Shown here: positions 2,394 to 14,692 of the stretch, piece after piece
Numbering within the stretch: position 1 is the stretch's first letter
How the letters are laid out: every line of letters begins with the position of its first letter
Origin: Candidatus Nanohaloarchaea archaeon
GTDB lineage: Archaea; Nanohalarchaeota; Nanosalinia; Nanosalinales; Nanosalinaceae
Direction of reading: 5' to 3'
NCBI GenBank assembly: GCA_042217695.1
Contig: JBDGSE010000027.1
Span: 1-15,374 of the forward strand
Length of the DNA stretch: 15,374 nucleotides
The notes under the pieces: model-generated
Told to the model about the DNA's origin: nothing
Database searches by the model: none
The model's input: only the letters and a program-made list of their open reading frames with translations
Translations under genes and position numbers: made by a program

Positions 2394-2470
2394 ATGAACA
2401 GTTATGAACAATCGATGTGTAAAAACGTTGAACAGTCTGTAAAACACACGTATGCCGAACATTTATAAAG
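2394..2470 (+). promoter_or_regulatory. ftsZ-locus promoter: TATA box with upstream direct repeats
   Basis: TTTATAAA at 2462-2469; TGAACA at 2395, 2405, 2429, CGAACA at 2456; TGTAAAA at 2418 and 2438. Confidence 0.55.
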
Positions 2471-2503: not shown

Positions 2504-2691
2504 GTTTCAGTTCGTGTTGGGCCACGAACCTGAAACGACTTCAAACTCGTTTGGGCGCGAGTTTGAGACACGCTTTCGGGCGACTTGAATTGGGCTTCAA
2601 GTCAACCGAGTTGGGCTAACGTATTGGGCATTCGATTGGGCTATCTTCTAAGGTAGAGTTACCTACGCCGACTTAAAAAGGTTAGGTGTAG
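2504..2691 (+). ncRNA. Structured leader or sRNA with repeated UUGGGC hairpin loops upstream of ftsZ
   Basis: Three stems with different sequences close an identical TTGGGC loop (2504-2536, 2541-2566, 2582-2603); further TTGGGC at 2611, 2624, 2636 and TCGGGC at 2576; extra hairpin 2663-2691; no ORF. Confidence 0.7.
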
Positions 2692-2715
2692 CTATACCGC
2701 AGCAGGGTTTGGTTA

Positions 2716-3780
2716 ATGGAATCCATCATAAACAACAACTCGAAAACCGAAGAAGAGCTTCAAAACCTCGAAGATGTTAAAGACGCAAAGATACTAGTTG
2801 TCGGAGCAGGAGGAGCTGGTAACAACCAGATAACCAGGATACAGAAGAAGGATGTCGAGGGCGCCGAAACCGTCGCCATCAACACCGACAAACAGCACCT
2901 GGAGATGTCCTCCGCCGACAGGAAAATACTCGTAGGGAAAGACCTTACCAGAGGCCTTGGCGCCGGCGGCCACCCGGAAAAGGGCGAAAGGGCCGCTGAA
3001 GAGAACCGGGCCGAACTCCGCTCGCTGTTCAAGGACGCCGACATGGTGTTCCTCACCGCGGGACTCGGAGGCGGAACCGGTACAGGAGTCTCTCCGGTAC
3101 TGGCGGAGATAGCCAAGAAGGAGGGATGCATTGTCATCGGAACAGTAACGATGCCTTTCAGCATAGAAGGCGCCAGGATGAGCAAGGCGGAAGAAGGCCT
3201 CTACAAACTCAGACAGCACGTTGACACCGCAATCGTGATCGAAAACGACAGGCTACTGGACATCGCGGGTGACATGCCTCTCGATCAGGCGTTCGGTGTC
3301 GCGGACGAACTGATAACAACGATGATCAAGGGCATCACGGAGACGATCTCCAAGCCATCCCTGGTCAACCTGGACTACGCAGATGTCCAGGCAGTCATGA
3401 ACCAGGGTGGCGTGGCCGTGGTAGGATACGGCGAGTCGAACACCGCAAACAAGGGCGAGGAAGCGATCCATGAAGCCCTCTCCAACCCGCTGCTCGACGT
3501 AGAGTTCGAGGGAGCAAACGGTGCACTCCTGCATGTCGCGGGAGGCGAGGACCTGACCCTCAACGAAATCAACGACGTAGGGCAGATGGTCACGGACAAG
3601 CTCGATAGCGGCGCCCAGGTGATCTGGGGCGCACGGATTCGCGAAGAACTTCAGGGCAAACTCCAGGTAATCTCCATAATCACGGGGGTCGAATCACCCT
3701 ACGTGCTTGGAGAGGTAGAGGAAGAGGAAACCGAAGTTACAGGTGACGTCAACGACCTGGGACTGGAGATAGTCAAGTAA
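2716..3780 (+). CDS. ftsZ: Cell division protein FtsZ (FtsZ2-type)
   Basis: GAGGAGNN, GGGTGTG tubulin signature; TDKQHL, KAEEGL, ETISKPSLVNLDYAD and WGARI resemble archaeal FtsZ2 more than FtsZ1. Confidence 0.97.
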   Translation: MESIINNNSKTEEELQNLEDVKDAKILVVGAGGAGNNQITRIQKKDVEGAETVAINTDKQHLEMSSADRKILVGKDLTRGLGAGGHPEKGERAAEENRAELRSLFKDADMVFLTAGLGGGTGTGVSPVLAEIAKKEGCIVIGTVTMPFSIEGARMSKAEEGLYKLRQHVDTAIVIENDRLLDIAGDMPLDQAFGVADELITTMIKGITETISKPSLVNLDYADVQAVMNQGGVAVVGYGESNTANKGEEAIHEALSNPLLDVEFEGANGALLHVAGGEDLTLNEINDVGQMVTDKLDSGAQVIWGARIREELQGKLQVISIITGVESPYVLGEVEEEETEVTGDVNDLGLEIVK

Positions 3781-3785
3781 AAACG

Positions 3786-3918
3786 ATATTATGGAGGAAG
3801 GCCTCTCGAAATCACCCCCTCCCCCCTTCGATGGCCTTTCCTCCTAAACCATATTAACCGGAAGGCCTCCGCACGATACAAATCACCCCCTCCCCCCTCC
3901 ATTGTGCGGAGGTCTCCG
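3786..3918 (+). ncRNA. Tandem hairpins with identical C-rich loops downstream of ftsZ
   Basis: AAATCACCCCCTCCCCCCT at 3809-3827 and 3880-3898, each mostly or wholly in the loop of a long stem (3793-3844, 3859-3918); G-U pairs favour folding on the + strand. Confidence 0.7.
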
Positions 3919-3982
3919 TGTACTCTTATTTCATCTTCTTTACAGCCAAAAACGGTTTAACTGTCGAAACAAGTTTTAAACC

Positions 3983-4486
3983 GTGAGAGAACTCTATTTC
4001 AACGCCGGAACCGGGACAGGAGTTCTGTCCGCAGTATTCGCCGGGCTGGCCATAAACCAGGGCTACAGTCTGCTGGCAGCCCTGCTCGCCCTGGGCTCCC
4101 TTGCAGCCATCACCTACACGGAGTCAAGGTCCCGGCAGGAGGGCAGAGACCGGCAGGAAAAGTTCCTGATAACTTTCTCGGCCATATTCTATGAGGTGGT
4201 GATGCTGGTCGGACTTCTGGTGACCGAACCCGTCTCGATACATCTGGCCGTCCTTGTACTTGCAGTGATATTCGCCTCTGAGGCCCTCAGCCTGGAACTT
4301 CTGCAGGAGATGCAGCAGAACTTTGAACTGGCGCTCGGCAGTGAGATCCGGGTGATCGCGGTTGCCGTGACGTTCTTCGCGTCCTACTTCAACCCGGCCT
4401 ACCTCTACTGGGGAACCCTGCTCGTCGGCCTGATAGCGTTCTACGACTTCGGAGACATCCTGAGACAGGTATACACAGAGATATAG
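3983..4486 (+). CDS. Multi-pass membrane protein, possibly a degenerate CDP-alcohol phosphatidyltransferase homologue
   Basis: 167 aa, about six hydrophobic segments; GTG start with TTTAA upstream. Family guess rests on helix layout and motif spacing only. Confidence 0.7.
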   Translation: MRELYFNAGTGTGVLSAVFAGLAINQGYSLLAALLALGSLAAITYTESRSRQEGRDRQEKFLITFSAIFYEVVMLVGLLVTEPVSIHLAVLVLAVIFASEALSLELLQEMQQNFELALGSEIRVIAVAVTFFASYFNPAYLYWGTLLVGLIAFYDFGDILRQVYTEI

Positions 4487-4551: not shown

Positions 4552-5055
4552 ATGAAGGCGCCAATATGCAACGTATGTCTTAAGAGCGATGTTCTCTGCA
4601 GCAATTGCGAGGAGAAGCTGGAGAACGGAGAGATCACGGAGCTAGACGTCCGTGTCTCCCGGATCCTTCAGGACCTCAGCAACGAGTACGGCTCCCTCAG
4701 AGACTCGGAGATCATCCGGGTCTACGACACCGATAACGTGGTCGTGATAGTGACCGCGGAAGGCGACGGGGCCAAGGTCGTCGGACGCAGCGGAGACATC
4801 GTGAAGGAGCTCGCCGACAGGATCGAGAAGTCTATCCGGGTAGTGGAGAAGTCGCCCGAGGACCGTGAAGTCATCAAGGGGCTTCTCTCTCCGGCAGAGA
4901 TAGAGTCGATCAACACGGTTTTCTCGCCGGAAGGCCAGCACAAGAAGGTCGTGGTAGACGAGGACTACCGCGGAAAAATCAACCTCGACACGGATGAGTT
5001 CGAGGAACTGATCGAGAAGATAACCGGCGAGCGGTACGAGCTCTCCTTCGAATAA
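4552..5055 (+). CDS. Archaeal NusA-like KH-domain protein with N-terminal Cys4 motif
   Basis: PICNVCLKSDVLCSNC N-terminus; KH-like VVGRSG..VKEL...IEKSIRVVE; TATTTAA about 25-30 nt upstream. Confidence 0.82.
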   Translation: MKAPICNVCLKSDVLCSNCEEKLENGEITELDVRVSRILQDLSNEYGSLRDSEIIRVYDTDNVVVIVTAEGDGAKVVGRSGDIVKELADRIEKSIRVVEKSPEDREVIKGLLSPAEIESINTVFSPEGQHKKVVVDEDYRGKINLDTDEFEELIEKITGERYELSFE

Positions 5056-5058
5056 AAC

Positions 5059-5075
5059 TTTTCCTTTTTCTTTTT
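5059..5075 (+). terminator. Oligo-T archaeal terminator
   Basis: TTTTCCTTTTTCTTTTT right after the stop codon. Confidence 0.55.
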
Positions 5076-5115
5076 GTAAAAAAGAGTATTTAACAACATC
5101 AGAGAAAGGTGAAAC

Positions 5116-6897
5116 ATGGACCAGGACAAACCGAAGGACGTTATAGCGGTTGTAGACCGCGAGAAGTGCCGGCCAGACAAGTGTAACCACGAGTGCATCA
5201 ACTTCGACCCGATAAACCGGTCGGGTGGAGAAGGTTTCCACATAGGCGACCACGGAAAGGCCGAGATAGACGACGACGTGGTGACCGAGGCACACAAGAT
5301 ATGCGCGAAGAAATGCCCCTTCAACGCCATCAAGATAGTGAACCTGGACCAGGAGGTCGGCGAAAAGATACACCAGTTCTCCGAGAACAGTTTCAGGCTC
5401 TACAGCCTGCCGCAGCCGAAGGAAGGTATGGTCGTCGGCATGCTTGGAAGAAACGGTATAGGAAAGTCCACCGCCCTGAAAATACTTGCAGGAAATATAA
5501 AGCCGAACCTGGGCGACTACGAGGACGAACCCTCATGGGACAGGATAATGGAGGAGTACCGGGGTACCGGTCTCCAAGACCACTTCGGAGAGCTTTCAGA
5601 GGGTGAAGTGGACGCGGCTTTCAAGCCACAGCAGGTCGACAAGATCCCGGGTCTTCACGACGGTACCGTCAAAGAACTACTTGAAGAAGTGGACGAACGT
5701 GATGCACTGGAATCGGTTGCGGAAACAGCCGACATAGGACATCTGCTTGAAAGAGAGATAGATGAACTCTCCGGAGGTGAGCTTCAACGGGTAGCGATCG
5801 CGTCAACCATGCTGAAGGACGCCAGTCTATACGTTTTCGACGAACCCTCCTCGTTCCTTGACGTGAAGCAGCGGCTGAAGATGGGGCGGGCTATAAGGGA
5901 ACTCGGACAGGAGAACAAGGTGCTCGTAGTAGAGCACGACCTTGCCACCCTTGACCTGGTCTCACACTCCATCCACGTGTTCCACGGCGACCCTGGTGCC
6001 TACGGGATGGTTTCCAATGCCCTGTCCTCGAGAGAGGGCATCAACCAGTACCTGGACGGCTACCTGAAATCGCACAACCTCCAGATACGGAGCGAGTCCA
6101 TAAGCTTCGACCGTTCAAAGCGGTCCGACGTGGAGAACAAACCGGTTGTACTCGAGTTCCCCGAGATGGAGAAAGACTTTGGAGAGGACGAGTTCTCTCT
6201 GGAGGTCGCGGAGGGGGAACTCCACGAGGAGGAGATACTTGGAATATTCGGGGAGAACGGGCTGGGTAAAACAACGTTTGCAAGGATGCTGGCCGGCGCA
6301 GTCGAACCCGAAACCGGGGAGACCCCCGATGTTTCTGTCTCCTACAAACCTCAGTACCTGGAGTCACAGAACGCAAACGTCCGCGGCGTGATATCCCGGC
6401 ATGTGAACCCGGAGAGCAAGAAGTTCAAGGCCCGGATAGCGGAACCCCTGGAACTGGAGGAACTCTATGAACAGGACCTGGAAGAGCTCTCCGGCGGAGA
6501 ACTCCAGAAGGTGGGTATCGCCATCGCGCTTTCAAGGGACGCAGACGTGTACCTTCTCGACGAGCCTTCAGCGTACCTCGACGTGGAATCCAGGGTGAAG
6601 CTGGGCAAGGTCCTGAAAAGATTCGCAAGGAAGACGGAGAAACCTCTCATGGTGATCGACCACGACCTTTTGCTGTTAGATTACATCGCCGACCGTGGCA
6701 TGGTCTTCACCGGGGAACCCGGTGTCCGGGGCGAGGCGGACTCGCCAGTCGGTATAGAGGCAGCGCTGAACACTTTCCTTGAAGAGGTCGACCTGACCTT
6801 CAGGAAGGACCCGGAATCCGGGCGTCCCAGGGCAAACAAACCCGGAAGCCAGAAAGACCGTGAACAGCGGGAAAGAGGCGAGTACTATGAACAGTAA
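5116..6897 (+). CDS. rli: Ribosome recycling ATPase ABCE1/RLI
   Basis: N-terminal Fe-S domain, two ABC cassettes (GRNGIGKST, LSGGELQ, DEPSSFLD; GENGLGKTT, LSGGELQ, DEPSAYLD), C-terminal GRPRANK..S.KD..Q; GGTGA SD at 5108-5112. Confidence 0.97.
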   Translation: MDQDKPKDVIAVVDREKCRPDKCNHECINFDPINRSGGEGFHIGDHGKAEIDDDVVTEAHKICAKKCPFNAIKIVNLDQEVGEKIHQFSENSFRLYSLPQPKEGMVVGMLGRNGIGKSTALKILAGNIKPNLGDYEDEPSWDRIMEEYRGTGLQDHFGELSEGEVDAAFKPQQVDKIPGLHDGTVKELLEEVDERDALESVAETADIGHLLEREIDELSGGELQRVAIASTMLKDASLYVFDEPSSFLDVKQRLKMGRAIRELGQENKVLVVEHDLATLDLVSHSIHVFHGDPGAYGMVSNALSSREGINQYLDGYLKSHNLQIRSESISFDRSKRSDVENKPVVLEFPEMEKDFGEDEFSLEVAEGELHEEEILGIFGENGLGKTTFARMLAGAVEPETGETPDVSVSYKPQYLESQNANVRGVISRHVNPESKKFKARIAEPLELEELYEQDLEELSGGELQKVGIAIALSRDADVYLLDEPSAYLDVESRVKLGKVLKRFARKTEKPLMVIDHDLLLLDYIADRGMVFTGEPGVRGEADSPVGIEAALNTFLEEVDLTFRKDPESGRPRANKPGSQKDREQRERGEYYEQ

Positions 6898-10570: not shown

Positions 10571-10762
10571 ATGGGAAGAGTACGACAGACATACGTGAAA
10601 CGGCTCGCGAAAGATCTTGTCGAGGCTGACCCGGAAAGGTTCAGCGAGGATTTCGACCACAACAAGGAGGAGCTCAAGGAGATGGACGAGTTCAACTCCA
10701 AGAAGCTCAGGAACAGGGTAGCGGGCTACATGGTACGTGTCCTCCAGAACCAGGAGAACTAG
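10571..10762 (+). CDS. rps17e: 30S ribosomal protein S17e
   Basis: MGRVRQTYVKR, F..DFDHNK, SKKLRNRVAGY. Confidence 0.97.
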   Translation: MGRVRQTYVKRLAKDLVEADPERFSEDFDHNKEELKEMDEFNSKKLRNRVAGYMVRVLQNQEN

Positions 10763-11238
10763 ATACTTCTAGAGTAAAACACTGTTGCAAGCAGTGAGAG
10801 CAGCACCAGTTGTATAAAGCCGGGTCCTGGGAGGTCTGCCGTGGTCGGCAGCGTCTCCAGCGCGGTAACTCTTACGCGGTCAACGTTCGCCGTACCAAGT
10901 TCGCGGTTGTAGGTCGTCACAGTAAGGTTCTCCCTGCCTGTTTTCAGCGGAGAGACAGCTATCTGGAAAGTTTTCCGGGAGTTCGCCGGGATCGTGTGGT
11001 AAACTCCCTGCCTGTGGTTAACCCAGAACCACGAGTTCACCCCTGTCAGGTTTATCATCAGCTCCTTTTCCCGGGACACATGGTTTTCGACCGTGAACTC
11101 CACGGTCCTTGTCGAGTCCACCGAGACAAGTATAGTGCTGTAAGGATGCTCTATGGAGGTCTCAAGCTGGGCGGACTGGACTGCAAACGCTGCAGGGATG
11201 AAAAGGATGGCCATGACCAGAACCGTTCCACGCTCCAT
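10759..11238 (-). CDS. Small secreted, C-terminally anchored beta-sandwich protein
   Basis: Signal peptide (PAAFA), C-terminal LPGPGF plus TM helix; aligns with the C-terminal module of the adjacent 1140-aa protein. Confidence 0.8.
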   Translation of the reverse strand: MERGTVLVMAILFIPAAFAVQSAQLETSIEHPYSTILVSVDSTRTVEFTVENHVSREKELMINLTGVNSWFWVNHRQGVYHTIPANSRKTFQIAVSPLKTGRENLTVTTYNRELGTANVDRVRVTALETLPTTADLPGPGFIQLVLLSLLATVFYSRSI

Positions 11239-11269
11239 AACCTAAATTACCCTCTCGTGGTTAAAGATT

Positions 11270-14200
11270 TCAGGGCAGCGAGTAGAAGTACACCGTGGCC
11301 GCCACCAGTACAACAGTGACAAGCTGAAGGTAGCCCATCCCCGGCACCGATCTCTCCAGGGAGCGGAAGTCTGTCACGTAGACCGGGAACCTGTCAACGT
11401 TCTTTGTGCCGAGCATAGTGTTTCTCGTGATAACTCTCAGAGTCTTTTCGCCGTTACTGGTGGGAGAGACACCTATCTGGAAGCTTTTCTCCTCACCCCC
11501 CGACAGGGTGTAAGAGATGCTGTCCTGATCGTTCTTCAGGAACTTGGCGTTCACCCCTGCAAGAGATGTCTGCAACTGTTTCGATTCGCTGACAAGGTTT
11601 TCGACCTCCAGGGTGATATAGGCGGTGCGGCCCGTCGATGTGATGATGGTAGAGTACCTGTACCTCAGGTCCGTCCTGGTCCTGTAACTCTGGGAAGTCA
11701 CCTTAACGAACTTCCATGTCGCACTTGTCGCGTTCTCGTAGCTGTCACTCACCTTCACAAACCATTCGTAAGTCTGGCCGACCTCCACAGACCCCCAGGA
11801 GGCATCAGCTATGCCGGAGTTCAGTTCCTCGTAGCCAAGGAGATCGCCCGTGTCCTGGTTGAAGAACCAGACCTTCAACGGGGCGTCCTCCATGTCGGAG
11901 ACATCCACCTGGAGATCGATAACGTCTCCCGATACACTGGAATCATCAGCGGGCGAGACAAGGTTTATGATCGGTCTCTGGTTCGGTATACGGTGGATCG
12001 ACGAGGCCGAACCTGTCGCACCGTGGTCGTCGTAAACGGTGAGATCCACGGTTATCGGCTCCATTACCTCGAAGCCCGGATAGACGCTGGAACTGGTGTT
12101 TATCTCGCTGTAACTGCAGCGGCCCTGGTCCGTTTCCCCGTAGTTCACGTTTACAGACACGGTCCTGGAATAACTGTTGCCGTCCGTATCTGTGAAGGTG
12201 TACTCGCAGCGGTCCAGCTCAAACCTGTTCGCGTCCGAGTCGTAGACCACCGCGGAGACGTTAAACGCATGCCGCGTGGAGTAGTTGGAATAGAAGAAAC
12301 TGGATACCGAGGGCGCGTGGTTGGGGAAAGTGTTCTTCCCGGTCTCTGTCGCTGTATTGCCCTCTGAATCGGTGGCCGTCACCGTCACATCCGTCGTGGC
12401 AAGGTGTGCCCAGGGCCCATCCCGGTAGTTCACCCCGTCATAGATGCACTGGGCCTCACTCGAGTTTCCATAGGCAGTATCTATGTTCATCGAGTAGGAG
12501 ACGGTATTGCCTCCCGACGTTGCATCCATGCCACAGCTCTGGATATCGCCCTCGCCGTCGGGATCGTAAACGTTCGCTGCAACGCTGTAACTGTGTTCAG
12601 TGGTGGAGTTCGTGAAAACCAGGGAGAGGATCTTCGGCGGCTTGTTGCACGTCAGGGTGAAGGTCCAGGTCGAACTGGTCACGGTCGTGGAACCGTCATC
12701 CGCCTCCACGTACCAGTTGTACGTTTTCCCGCACTGAAGGTTGCTCCACTCTACAGATGCGGTCCCCGAACCGGAGACTGTGTCCGTGCCGATCAGGCTC
12801 GTGCTCTTCCGAAGATTCATCCTGTATAGCTGGGAGCGGTCCCACCATTCGTTAAGGGAGTTTTCCATGTCGCTCGCCATGTAGAACCGGGTCAGTTCGT
12901 TTGGGGCGTTGACAGAGAACTGGCCGTTCCACTCAAAGTTTGAGCTGTCCTGGCCGCAGCTGAAACTGTCGTAGGCCCCATCGTTGTCGCACCTGAAGAC
13001 GTACTGGTTGCCGGAGGAGTCTTCCGCCCAGAAGTATACTCCCGAGGCTTCGTAGGACTCTCCCCGGAAATGCAGGTCGAGTACCAGGTTGCCGTTGTTC
13101 GGAGGCAGGTTCTTTGAGTACTTCATCCTTCCATCACTGTCTGACTCCGCCCACCTGAGATAGTTGGACTGGTGGTCGTACATCAGGCCCCAGTCGTAGT
13201 CCTGGTTCATCCTGTCCCTGAGGTCTGTAAGGGTGTCTCCCCTGCTCTCCCTGTCCCACCGGAGTATGCTTTTACGGTAGAACCTGCTGGCCGGCACGTA
13301 GGAATAACTTGAATCCGAGGGCTTCATCCAGAAAAGCTTGTAATCATCTCCACCGCCACGGTCGCTCATCCTGTACATAAACGAGTGATAACCCTTGCTG
13401 AGGCTGACCTGACCGTTGTAGCTCTTGCAGCTCCCGCAGTCACCGTGGGAGCCGTACCATGAAGCAACCCGGTTACCCGACGATACGCTGTCGCAGTGGT
13501 TCATCGCCGTGGAGGGAACATCGATGAAGAAGTCGCTGGCGTCATCCGAATCCGTGGCAAAACTGTATGTTCCCGACTCCGGAGCATAGATATAACCCGT
13601 TATACACGTCGAGTAGGTATCCGAAGAGGCGAAAAGGTTGCATTCCTCGCCGTCGCCACAGTCGATCCTGTCCTGGACCGTTTTCTCGCCAAATTTTCCA
13701 GTGACCTGGCTCCCATCATCCATCCTGGCCGAGAGCTCCGACATCGAATTCGCGCCATCCGAACGACTATGGTCCCACTGCATAACCTTCATACCCTGGA
13801 CGTAGCCCGTGGAACCTCCCGCGTTGTAGAATTTCACGTCAACACTGTCCCCGTTGGAGTCGGAGACATCCACCTTTAACTGGGGGTTCTGGGAGTTCAC
13901 AGGGCTGGTGCTTGTTGCCTGGGCGGGCCTTGGGTTGGAGACGGAGGGTGGAGAATTGCACTGTTCGGACCAGGAAAGCGTAGTCCTCAACCCAAGCACG
14001 TCTGCTTCACCTCCGCTGTAGTGGCTTGCCTTGACAGTCAGGTAGTCATCGCTAGCCTCTGAAGTGACATCGTAGGGACTGGAGGGACAGCTCTCCCAGC
14101 CATACACGGGACAGGAATAAGTGTCTCCGTAGATATTCTGGCCGCAGTCGTCTTTGTAGTTGCCGTCTGCATATATATTGGATCTTCCCTCGTAACCTCC

Positions 14201-14692
14201 CAGGTCGCCATCCATACTGACATAGGCCGTTGCAGAGCTCAGGCTACAGCCGTTGGTGATAAAATTGCTGAAAGTTACGCTAGTAGAACACTGATCGCAG
14301 TAGTCGTAACAGGCGGTTCTGGTCTGTGAAGGGTCCATCCACCGGAAAGATTTCATAACTCCTCCGCTCGGAGTCCTGACACGTACGAAAGAAGTGTACT
14401 CCCTACTTTCGGTCCCGGTCACCTTCCAGGAAGCCTTCCATACCGTTCTGTTCCCGATATCCTGGATTTTCTCCATCCGGATAGTGGTGTTGGAAAGCAT
14501 CAGGTCGACACGCTCTATAGGTTTCTTCGACCTGATCTCGGCTGTGACGTTAAGATAGTTTCCCGGTCCAACTCTGTCTGGTTCATGTGTTATTTCAGTT
14601 ATCCGGGTGGAAAGACCCGGACCCTCTGCCGCAGCGGTCATCGAAGAAAACAATACCAGGAATACCAAGAGCCAGGAGAACTCTAACCTCAT
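11270..14692 (-). CDS. Large cell-surface protein with PA14 domain and Ig-like repeats, putative adhesin/lectin
   Basis: Signal peptide; PA14 motif TGYIYAPESGTYSFATDSDDASDFFID...GQVSLSKGYH...LFW..P...VP; N-x-x-P-initiated Ig-like repeats; Cys pairs; VPGMGY plus TM at the C-terminus. Confidence 0.85.
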   Translation of the reverse strand: MRLEFSWLLVFLVLFSSMTAAAEGPGLSTRITEITHEPDRVGPGNYLNVTAEIRSKKPIERVDLMLSNTTIRMEKIQDIGNRTVWKASWKVTGTESREYTSFVRVRTPSGGVMKSFRWMDPSQTRTACYDYCDQCSTSVTFSNFITNGCSLSSATAYVSMDGDLGGYEGRSNIYADGNYKDDCGQNIYGDTYSCPVYGWESCPSSPYDVTSEASDDYLTVKASHYSGGEADVLGLRTTLSWSEQCNSPPSVSNPRPAQATSTSPVNSQNPQLKVDVSDSNGDSVDVKFYNAGGSTGYVQGMKVMQWDHSRSDGANSMSELSARMDDGSQVTGKFGEKTVQDRIDCGDGEECNLFASSDTYSTCITGYIYAPESGTYSFATDSDDASDFFIDVPSTAMNHCDSVSSGNRVASWYGSHGDCGSCKSYNGQVSLSKGYHSFMYRMSDRGGGDDYKLFWMKPSDSSYSYVPASRFYRKSILRWDRESRGDTLTDLRDRMNQDYDWGLMYDHQSNYLRWAESDSDGRMKYSKNLPPNNGNLVLDLHFRGESYEASGVYFWAEDSSGNQYVFRCDNDGAYDSFSCGQDSSNFEWNGQFSVNAPNELTRFYMASDMENSLNEWWDRSQLYRMNLRKSTSLIGTDTVSGSGTASVEWSNLQCGKTYNWYVEADDGSTTVTSSTWTFTLTCNKPPKILSLVFTNSTTEHSYSVAANVYDPDGEGDIQSCGMDATSGGNTVSYSMNIDTAYGNSSEAQCIYDGVNYRDGPWAHLATTDVTVTATDSEGNTATETGKNTFPNHAPSVSSFFYSNYSTRHAFNVSAVVYDSDANRFELDRCEYTFTDTDGNSYSRTVSVNVNYGETDQGRCSYSEINTSSSVYPGFEVMEPITVDLTVYDDHGATGSASSIHRIPNQRPIINLVSPADDSSVSGDVIDLQVDVSDMEDAPLKVWFFNQDTGDLLGYEELNSGIADASWGSVEVGQTYEWFVKVSDSYENATSATWKFVKVTSQSYRTRTDLRYRYSTIITSTGRTAYITLEVENLVSESKQLQTSLAGVNAKFLKNDQDSISYTLSGGEEKSFQIGVSPTSNGEKTLRVITRNTMLGTKNVDRFPVYVTDFRSLERSVPGMGYLQLVTVVLVAATVYFYSLP

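Follow-up and report, generated by a model that had tools for sequence, protein, structure and literature searches.

Regulons built on sequence-specific 3'-UTR elements are familiar from eukaryotes but, as far as we are aware, have hardly been described for archaea. Among described RNAs, the cuckoo family of alphaproteobacteria is the closest in shape to the element reported here, since it too consists of adjacent hairpins that repeat a single C-rich loop on stems of very variable sequence (PMC4615179; papers are cited by PMC number for the parts of their text that were available). Targets of PCBP include C-rich loops and C-rich elements of 3' UTRs, the KH core sites being UCCC, ACCC, or CCCU (PMC1885661). 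In archaeal cell division, the cdrS-ftsZ2 pair is reported in all clades except DPANN, as far as the available part of PMC7439475 goes. The locus analyzed here comes from a nanohaloarchaeal contig, and the whole stretch of 15,374 nt that was analyzed is referred to as the window. Behind its ftsZ gene lies a hairpin trailer that is a real, undescribed, lineage-wide RNA element, conserved and structured. A literature search whose coverage left out subscription journals and bioRxiv supplements returned no published description of it.

Twin C-loop hairpins behind ftsZ

From the gene to the likely transcript end, the window carries the following features.

2716..3780, plus strand: ftsZ, the paralogue that does not adjoin secE-nusG, likely ftsZ2 (TIGR00065, tree, and neighbors)
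3786..3790, plus strand: AUAUU motif 5' of hairpin 1, also found near the stem base of relatives' hairpins
3793..3844, plus strand: hairpin 1 with its C-rich loop, 19-mer at 3809-3827 and C-tract at 3815-3826 (fold, and pair counts on homologous first units)
3851..3855, plus strand: AUAUU motif 5' of hairpin 2 (sequence)
3858..3918, plus strand: hairpin 2 with its C-rich loop, 19-mer at 3880-3898 and C-tract at 3886-3897 (fold)
3922..3943, plus strand: U-rich tail, likely transcript end (U content after the last hairpin in family loci)

Close relatives of this FtsZ bear titles mostly naming Nanohaloarchaea, and most genomes of the phylum encode two FtsZ genes. The other paralogue forms a separate clade in the tree and is followed by ORFs that we recognized by eye, without a profile search, as SecE and NusG; since we take secE/nusG synteny to be the mark of ftsZ1, the gene in the window is likely ftsZ2. 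Five loci of the other paralogue have neither the hairpin trailer nor the array of leader motifs described below; its copy in this genome has a short C-rich stretch past the stop codon that is absent in two other whole genomes. Downstream of ftsZ, the window encodes a NusA-like KH protein with a Cys-rich N terminus, together with RLI/ABCE1 (4552-6897). A nusA-like gene occupies this downstream position at 39 of 41 family loci and at 0 of 11 loci in the other four families; the element therefore travels with ftsZ and not with the downstream gene. Farther along the window, on the minus strand (10759-14692), secreted proteins of 159 aa and 1140 aa (the latter PA14-like) have a near-identical C-terminal segment (repeat D13), which suggests a shared anchor module.

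The trailer itself consists of two units, much as a first-pass annotation of the letters had described them. ATATTA stands at 3786-3791 and 3851-3856, once per unit; GGAAGGCCTC is present in each; the two 19-mer copies are identical; and the inner stems differ in sequence yet keep their pairing. Over positions 3770-3930, the plus strand is predicted to form two long hairpins, each presenting its copy of the 19-mer as loop sequence, at -53.8 kcal/mol (z -7.11, 0/200 shuffles as good), versus a z score of -1.92 on the minus strand, where 5/200 shuffles were as good. When 68 trailer hairpins were folded with Watson-Crick pairs only, G-U accounted for 40 of their single mismatches and A-C for 14, which favors the plus strand and agrees with the earlier proposal of a plus-strand RNA. 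Past the last hairpin, U makes up on average 43% of the next 25 nt (44 family loci), and by analogy with established archaeal U-tract termination, the tail at 3922..3943 is a likely terminator.

Conservation was assessed at 60 of the 112 loci with an FtsZ hit; duplicates (26), loci lacking a trailer (2), distant homologues (15), and loci of the paralogue or an outgroup (9) were set aside. A two-tract C-run (about CCCC-U-CCCCCC) lies within 420 nt of the ftsZ stop codon at 45 of 46 family loci, the sole miss being a contig end; the loops, whose conservation the first-pass annotation had singled out for checking, are thus kept in relatives. Other families have the two-tract run at 3/4, 1/1, and 1/1 loci. 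In family f3, the strict form occurs at 0/8 loci, and seven full-length trailers carry separate runs of four or more C, three to seven per 300 nt. Family loci hold two or three units in 22 cases out of 46 and one unit in 23. Tract length ranges from 3 to 10 C, with U or UU as the separator in 74/84 cases. Predicted folds leave the tracts open, with a mean unpaired probability of at least 0.7 in 70/74 units and 183 of the 244 runs of three or more C in trailers unpaired. Their placement varies among apical loops, internal loops, and linkers, and they are unpaired in all of these. At the stem base, an AUAUU-like motif is found in 57/63 family hairpins versus 54/1196 coding windows.

The 63 hairpins include 60 distinct 5' arms, and a hairpin's own arms pair at -16.5 kcal/mol, versus -7.4 for arms swapped between genomes, a comparison biased in favor of the former because the arms were taken from MFE folds; the own partner arm was the best partner in just 26/63. 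The first-pass annotation had also called for covariation among ftsZ 3' regions, and stem double changes do exceed shuffles (10 double-change cells in alignment A3 and 9 in A2, each reached in 0/500 shuffles), with structures named by hand and a control inflated by kin. RNAalifold, run on trailer alignments as sequence only, returned a consensus on one and none on two others; its failure on alignments A1, A2, and A4 probably arises because variable stem lengths break the register. The stems of the trailer serve as a scaffold with no constraint on sequence, and the conserved signal is the AUAUU-like motif, CCCC-U-CCCCCC, and the U-tail.

We regard it as scarcely credible that the trailer is a DNA-level or mobile feature (MITE, cruciform, or G-quadruplex/i-motif) or an H/ACA-type guide. 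The minus strand does have G-runs and a lower raw MFE in 47/68 trailer hairpins, presumably because the G-rich complement of the loop finds extra pairs, and G-strings mark origin-like boxes in these genomes. Nonetheless, the G-U:A-C imbalance and the covarying stems argue for RNA. The search for further copies suggested by the first-pass annotation found the 19-mer just twice in the 757-kb genome (83% complete), even allowing four mismatches, and the occurrence of one locus per genome, at a fixed position behind ftsZ, disposes of the MITE that it had named as a concern. An H/ACA guide is at odds with the position of ACA, just 3' of the hairpin in only 6/68. The element has no match in Rfam 15: at E<=1, the search of the window returned nothing but a weak ssnA match at 4068-4116, outside the element, and the ftsZ loci of three relatives, screened among nine sources, had no match at E<=0.5. 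In viral contigs there were two C-tract matches, neither with hairpin context, and two matches to the leader pattern. Cultured nanohaloarchaeal consortia with transcriptomes exist, and the RPKM table shows two ftsZ genes expressed, UTRs not being addressed in the available part of that source (PMC10266531); five SVXNc ncRNA sequences in its supplement, compared by eye, hold neither the C-tract nor a GGG-loop array.

Other motifs recur in these genomes. An origin-recognition-box-like motif with a G-string is conserved (C6 at about 3007 in this genome; L179, L180, L181, L196, and L207 elsewhere) and adjoins a cdc6-like gene in this genome, which points to a likely replication origin. Two palindromic boxes with a G/C tract between them lie upstream of nrdR-like and ribonucleotide-reductase-like genes (L184, L189, and L190) and resemble NrdR boxes. 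A noncoding motif, CCCCTCCCCAG...CTCACCGATG, is often found 3' of an Elp3-like gene (L192, L194, L205, L210, L211, and L212; C30 at about 31726 in this genome), and its L192 copy has no Rfam match at E<=0.5.

The ftsZ leader and candidate pairing partners

Upstream of the start codon, the ftsZ leader is structured as well.

2462..2469, plus strand: upstream TATA-like box P1, about 250 nt from the gene and likely start of the ~230-nt ftsZ leader; in most relatives it is conserved at roughly 207-346 nt 5' of the start codon
2510..2641, plus strand: seven YGGGC motifs, three of them in perfect hairpins with UUGGGC loops at 2517-2522, 2551-2556, and 2590-2595
2646..2694, strand left open: conserved inverted repeat around a TTAAAAA core, either an RNA hairpin or a promoter (76% of cells paired, six pairs with double changes)

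Promoter scores of P1 are like those of the genome's own promoters (median 10.6 versus 10.5). In 58 leaders, 280 runs of three or more G contrast with 4 runs of three or more C; 277 of the 280 are exactly GGG, and many YGGG(C/A) motifs sit at hairpin tips with changing arms. At nine loci, the entire array has switched from GGGC to GGGA; in one family, the loops have only GG. This GGG-loop array is the only one in the genome and the only such array common to three genomes. No G-quadruplex appeared in the 58 MFE folds of leaders, under a model that ignores molar K+. Scored as a promoter at 57 loci, the element at 2646..2694 has a higher median on the minus strand (9.7) than on the plus strand (8.2). 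A minus-strand promoter at the end of the leader might yield an antisense RNA, which would be a better, perfectly matched partner for the leader loops.

Leaders rich in G runs extend to more distant FtsZ loci, for which 5 of 10 looked-up proteins had cluster members named Aenigmatarchaeota. These contain 142 G runs versus 17 C runs (43 leaders, two rows having been left out of the count), with some Aenigmatarchaeota runs of 4-5 G. Past the stop codon, such loci have short, inconsistent C-runs (four or more C in 29/44, some of them paired), and no C-loop hairpin was found among the loci listed. Just 5' of the ftsZ start, loci L322-L373 have conserved TTCTAAG, AAACC-TATAAA-GGTTTTC, and a kink-turn-like CGATGA hairpin, a block with apparent homology to the leader end in Nanohaloarchaea. 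Directly 3' of ftsZ, many of the Aenigmatarchaeota-like loci (L323-L373) carry a very acidic micro-ORF of ~20 codons (MDEDVWDP...).

A C-rich trailer facing a G-rich leader brings up a loop-loop interaction, possible but in our view doubtful, in which the 3' C-tracts would pair with the GGG loops, closing the mRNA or acting in trans after release of the trailer, while the C-tract of a ribbon-helix-helix (RHH) gene described below would compete for the same loops. The genome's only GGG-loop array and its only C-loop hairpins flank one gene; beside the scarcity of C runs in leaders, 0/74 runs of three or more G are unpaired in trailers; and the best accessible duplex joins a GGG loop to a C-tract in most of 42 genomes. 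An Sm protein is encoded, Aenigmatarchaeota leaders likewise repeat G runs, and precedents exist in RNAIII, whose hairpins pair with UUGGGA motifs in rot (PMC4691137), and in icaR, where UCCCCUG in the 3'-UTR pairs with its own 5'-UTR (PMC3868564). However, each contact would offer just 3 G-C pairs, worth about -4 to -7 kcal/mol. Most GGG runs lie within YGGGC, where the flanking bases have no pairing partner in the tract. Cognate and noncognate duplexes are equal in energy (-5.75 versus -5.75, p 0.47), and loop number barely correlates with tract number (rho 0.25, p 0.06, kin not being independent). The nine GGGA loci have not gained a U before the C-tract (18/25 versus 99/123), the GG-only loops of one family likewise fit poorly, and the possible antisense promoter would supply the leader loops with another, perfectly matched partner.

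The principal proposal of the first-pass annotation was a different kind of pairing, by a trailer-derived small RNA that occludes the G-rich Shine-Dalgarno sites of other mRNAs through AUCACC and CCUCC in its loop. Both motifs are present here, and CCUCC recurs in 58/74 units, but AUCACC is found in 2/74, from this genome only. The 16S 3' end that the annotation had assumed, GGAUCACCUCCA, is indeed found in 4/5 relatives. The architecture is also like that of cuckoo RNAs (PMC4615179), and the loop has strong complementarity to a few start regions of this genome, e.g., that of the cdc6-like gene at -25 kcal/mol. Against these points, complementary starts are not enriched over coding controls (5 versus 3 of 317 at -18 kcal/mol or lower; 24 versus 41 at -12 or lower), and the best conserved start-site duplex among 375 three-way orthologues reaches just -12.4 kcal/mol, which leaves no conserved target. 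The Shine-Dalgarno sequence of this genome, which is GAGGUGA-like, is rare (about 8% of 317 starts), and many mRNAs look leaderless, judging by the TATA-like peak 28-30 nt upstream of start codons. Hairpin 1 begins only 13 nt past the stop codon, so the gap has no room for a promoter. Nor does the ftsZ start region itself pair with the trailer in a conserved manner (median -5.8 kcal/mol; 9/48 at -10 or lower). Regulation of ribosome-binding sites in trans, as first proposed, is therefore very unlikely. A 16S pattern, which assumed a base that differs here, had no match in 41 genomes, and no 16S gene is present in the genome under study. In one relative (L117), the 16S model match ends in non-rRNA-like sequence near the 3' end, which suggests an insertion or intron there.

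An RHH gene with the same 3' tract

A second message carries the C-tract. On another contig (L128:1471-1617, minus strand), CATCACCCCCCTCCCCC lies directly 3' of a gene for a 48-residue RHH protein. Among orthologues with at least 60% identity, the tract occurs within 110 nt past the stop codon in 27/27 and is preceded by an AUAUU-like motif in 22/27, and 0/27 have YGGG(C/A) within 30 nt upstream of the start codon; on this mRNA, the tract thus cannot serve cis pairing with its own leader. A survey of downstream gaps in three genomes from three genera, based on crude gene calls of our own on unjoined pieces, found the C-tract behind 16/437, 12/685, and 9/597 genes (versus 16, 16, and 14 for the mirror G-tract), with ftsZ2 and the RHH gene as the only genes that have it in all three. 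With the strict pattern, ftsZ2 and RHH were the recurring 3' sites in seven single-contig genomes, alongside unrelated recurring CCCCWCCCC sites in origin-like G-strings, between palindromes upstream of the nrdR-like gene, and after the Elp3-like gene.

Identification of the RHH gene as cdrS was rejected (E 2e-4 and 21 bits versus an NCBIfam cutoff of 100; different contig from ftsZ2), and no RHH-like ORF was found in the ftsZ leader. In relatives, the arms of an inverted repeat (GTAATAC ... GTATTAC/GTAGTAC) flank the TATA box of the RHH promoter, which suggests that the gene is autoregulated. Inverted repeats of the GTAATAC-N34-GTATTAC type also occur elsewhere in two relatives (L173, L222, L223, L228, L229, L244, L260, and L284); the only called gene start at a distance of 90 nt or less was that of the RHH gene.

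Since ftsZ2 and the RHH gene carry the same signal, the two mRNAs likely form a small posttranscriptional regulon. Our preferred reading, to which we assign a probability of about 0.47, is that the trailer is a cis-acting 3'-UTR protein-docking element common to both. The trailer would be transcribed with ftsZ as its 3' untranslated region, the hairpins, as folded in silico, would hold the C-tract unpaired, and a C-specific RNA-binding protein, perhaps of the KH type by analogy with PCBP, would dock on the tract and set the stability or translation of the ftsZ message. A protein site best accommodates the interrupting U, the AUAUU motif, the free position in the fold, and the presence of the tract on an mRNA that has no G-loop leader. 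Neither the interrupting U nor AUAUU has a complement in the leader loops, and a tract that is unpaired in apical loops, internal loops, and linkers alike suits a flexible single-stranded site better than a fixed kissing geometry. A poly(C)-binding protein site had been the secondary idea of the first-pass annotation, and as an idea it has come out ahead, binding itself being predicted. KH and Sm proteins, as candidate docking partners, are encoded in the genome, where no PCBP-like triple-KH partner was identified.

Several findings count against protein docking. The genome's only GGG-loop array, with its complementarity to the tract, lies in front of this very gene, a match that the docking reading treats as coincidence or as indirect. 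In addition, the RHH gene is patchy (strong matches in 27/50 family genomes, none in three single-contig genomes), RHH and ftsZ tracts of the same genome show no significant likeness (p 0.15; 0.08 at one genome per genus), family f3 is without the strict tract, and RNAalifold failed on several alignments.

The same shared tract could act during transcription, as a gene-specific termination or 3'-end-processing signal in which the C-tract and AUAUU are read by NusA-like or aCPSF1 KH domains, or by an endonuclease at AUAUU, thereby setting read-through or trimming. We consider this improbable. It would suit the position of the tract just 5' of a U-rich tail in both genes, the frequent NusA-like KH gene 3' of ftsZ in the family, and the processing of ftsZ2 mRNA reported in Halobacterium (PMC8303175). 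Yet C-tracts are not enriched past stop codons genome-wide, being no commoner there than the mirror G-tract in the three-genome survey; the gene downstream of ftsZ has its own TATA-like box, at 3956; and the nusA-like neighbor is missing from the other four families.

Leader, trailer, and RHH message may also be combined in one scheme, rather unlikely in our estimate, in which an RNA circuit replaces the cdrS-ftsZ2 operon in Nanohaloarchaea. The GGG-loop leader and C-loop trailer would lock together, multivalently or via proteins, and the C-tract of the RHH mRNA would be the competing key. If true, this circuit would give archaea a first 5'-3' UTR switch that features cross-talk between mRNAs. 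For the timing of division in DPANN symbionts, a signal on the ftsZ2 and RHH messages, plus a structured leader, provides concrete handles.

Comparison with known systems

RNAs of the RNAIII/RsaE/RoxS type have conserved complementarity to the Shine-Dalgarno regions of their targets, which sets them apart from the trailer. The icaR 5'-3' UTR interaction (PMC3868564) and RNAIII-rot (PMC4691137) resemble the present locus in that C-rich 3' elements face G-rich 5' elements with UUGGGA-like motifs. In the icaR case, pairing involves the Shine-Dalgarno sequence (PMC3868564), whereas the ftsZ start region has no conserved pairing with its trailer. The ftsZ leader loops also differ from both systems in offering 3 base pairs only, without covariation with the trailer.

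Resemblance to the cuckoo RNAs stops short of the loop itself, since their loop motif, CCUCCUCCC, as given in the available part of PMC4615179, occurs in 0/60 trailers. Moreover, the trailer has one to three units in a likely archaeal ftsZ 3' UTR, and its tract is also found outside hairpin tips, which distinguishes it from the family as described there. PCBP targets such as the alpha-globin alpha-complex and loop B of the poliovirus cloverleaf share with the trailer tandem C-tracts split by U or A, single-stranded and located in 3' regions or loops (PMC1885661). Those targets are eukaryotic and viral, and the tandem C-tracts of the trailer are single-stranded by prediction.

The nearest parallel in biological terms is the cdrS-ftsZ2 system of Halobacteria, where, as here, an RHH protein and ftsZ2 appear linked by regulation (PMC7439475, PMC8406309). 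There, according to the available parts of both papers, the link consists of an operon and DNA binding; in the nanohaloarchaeal genomes, the RHH gene is unlinked to ftsZ2 and weakly CdrS-like, and what the two genes share is a 3' signal.
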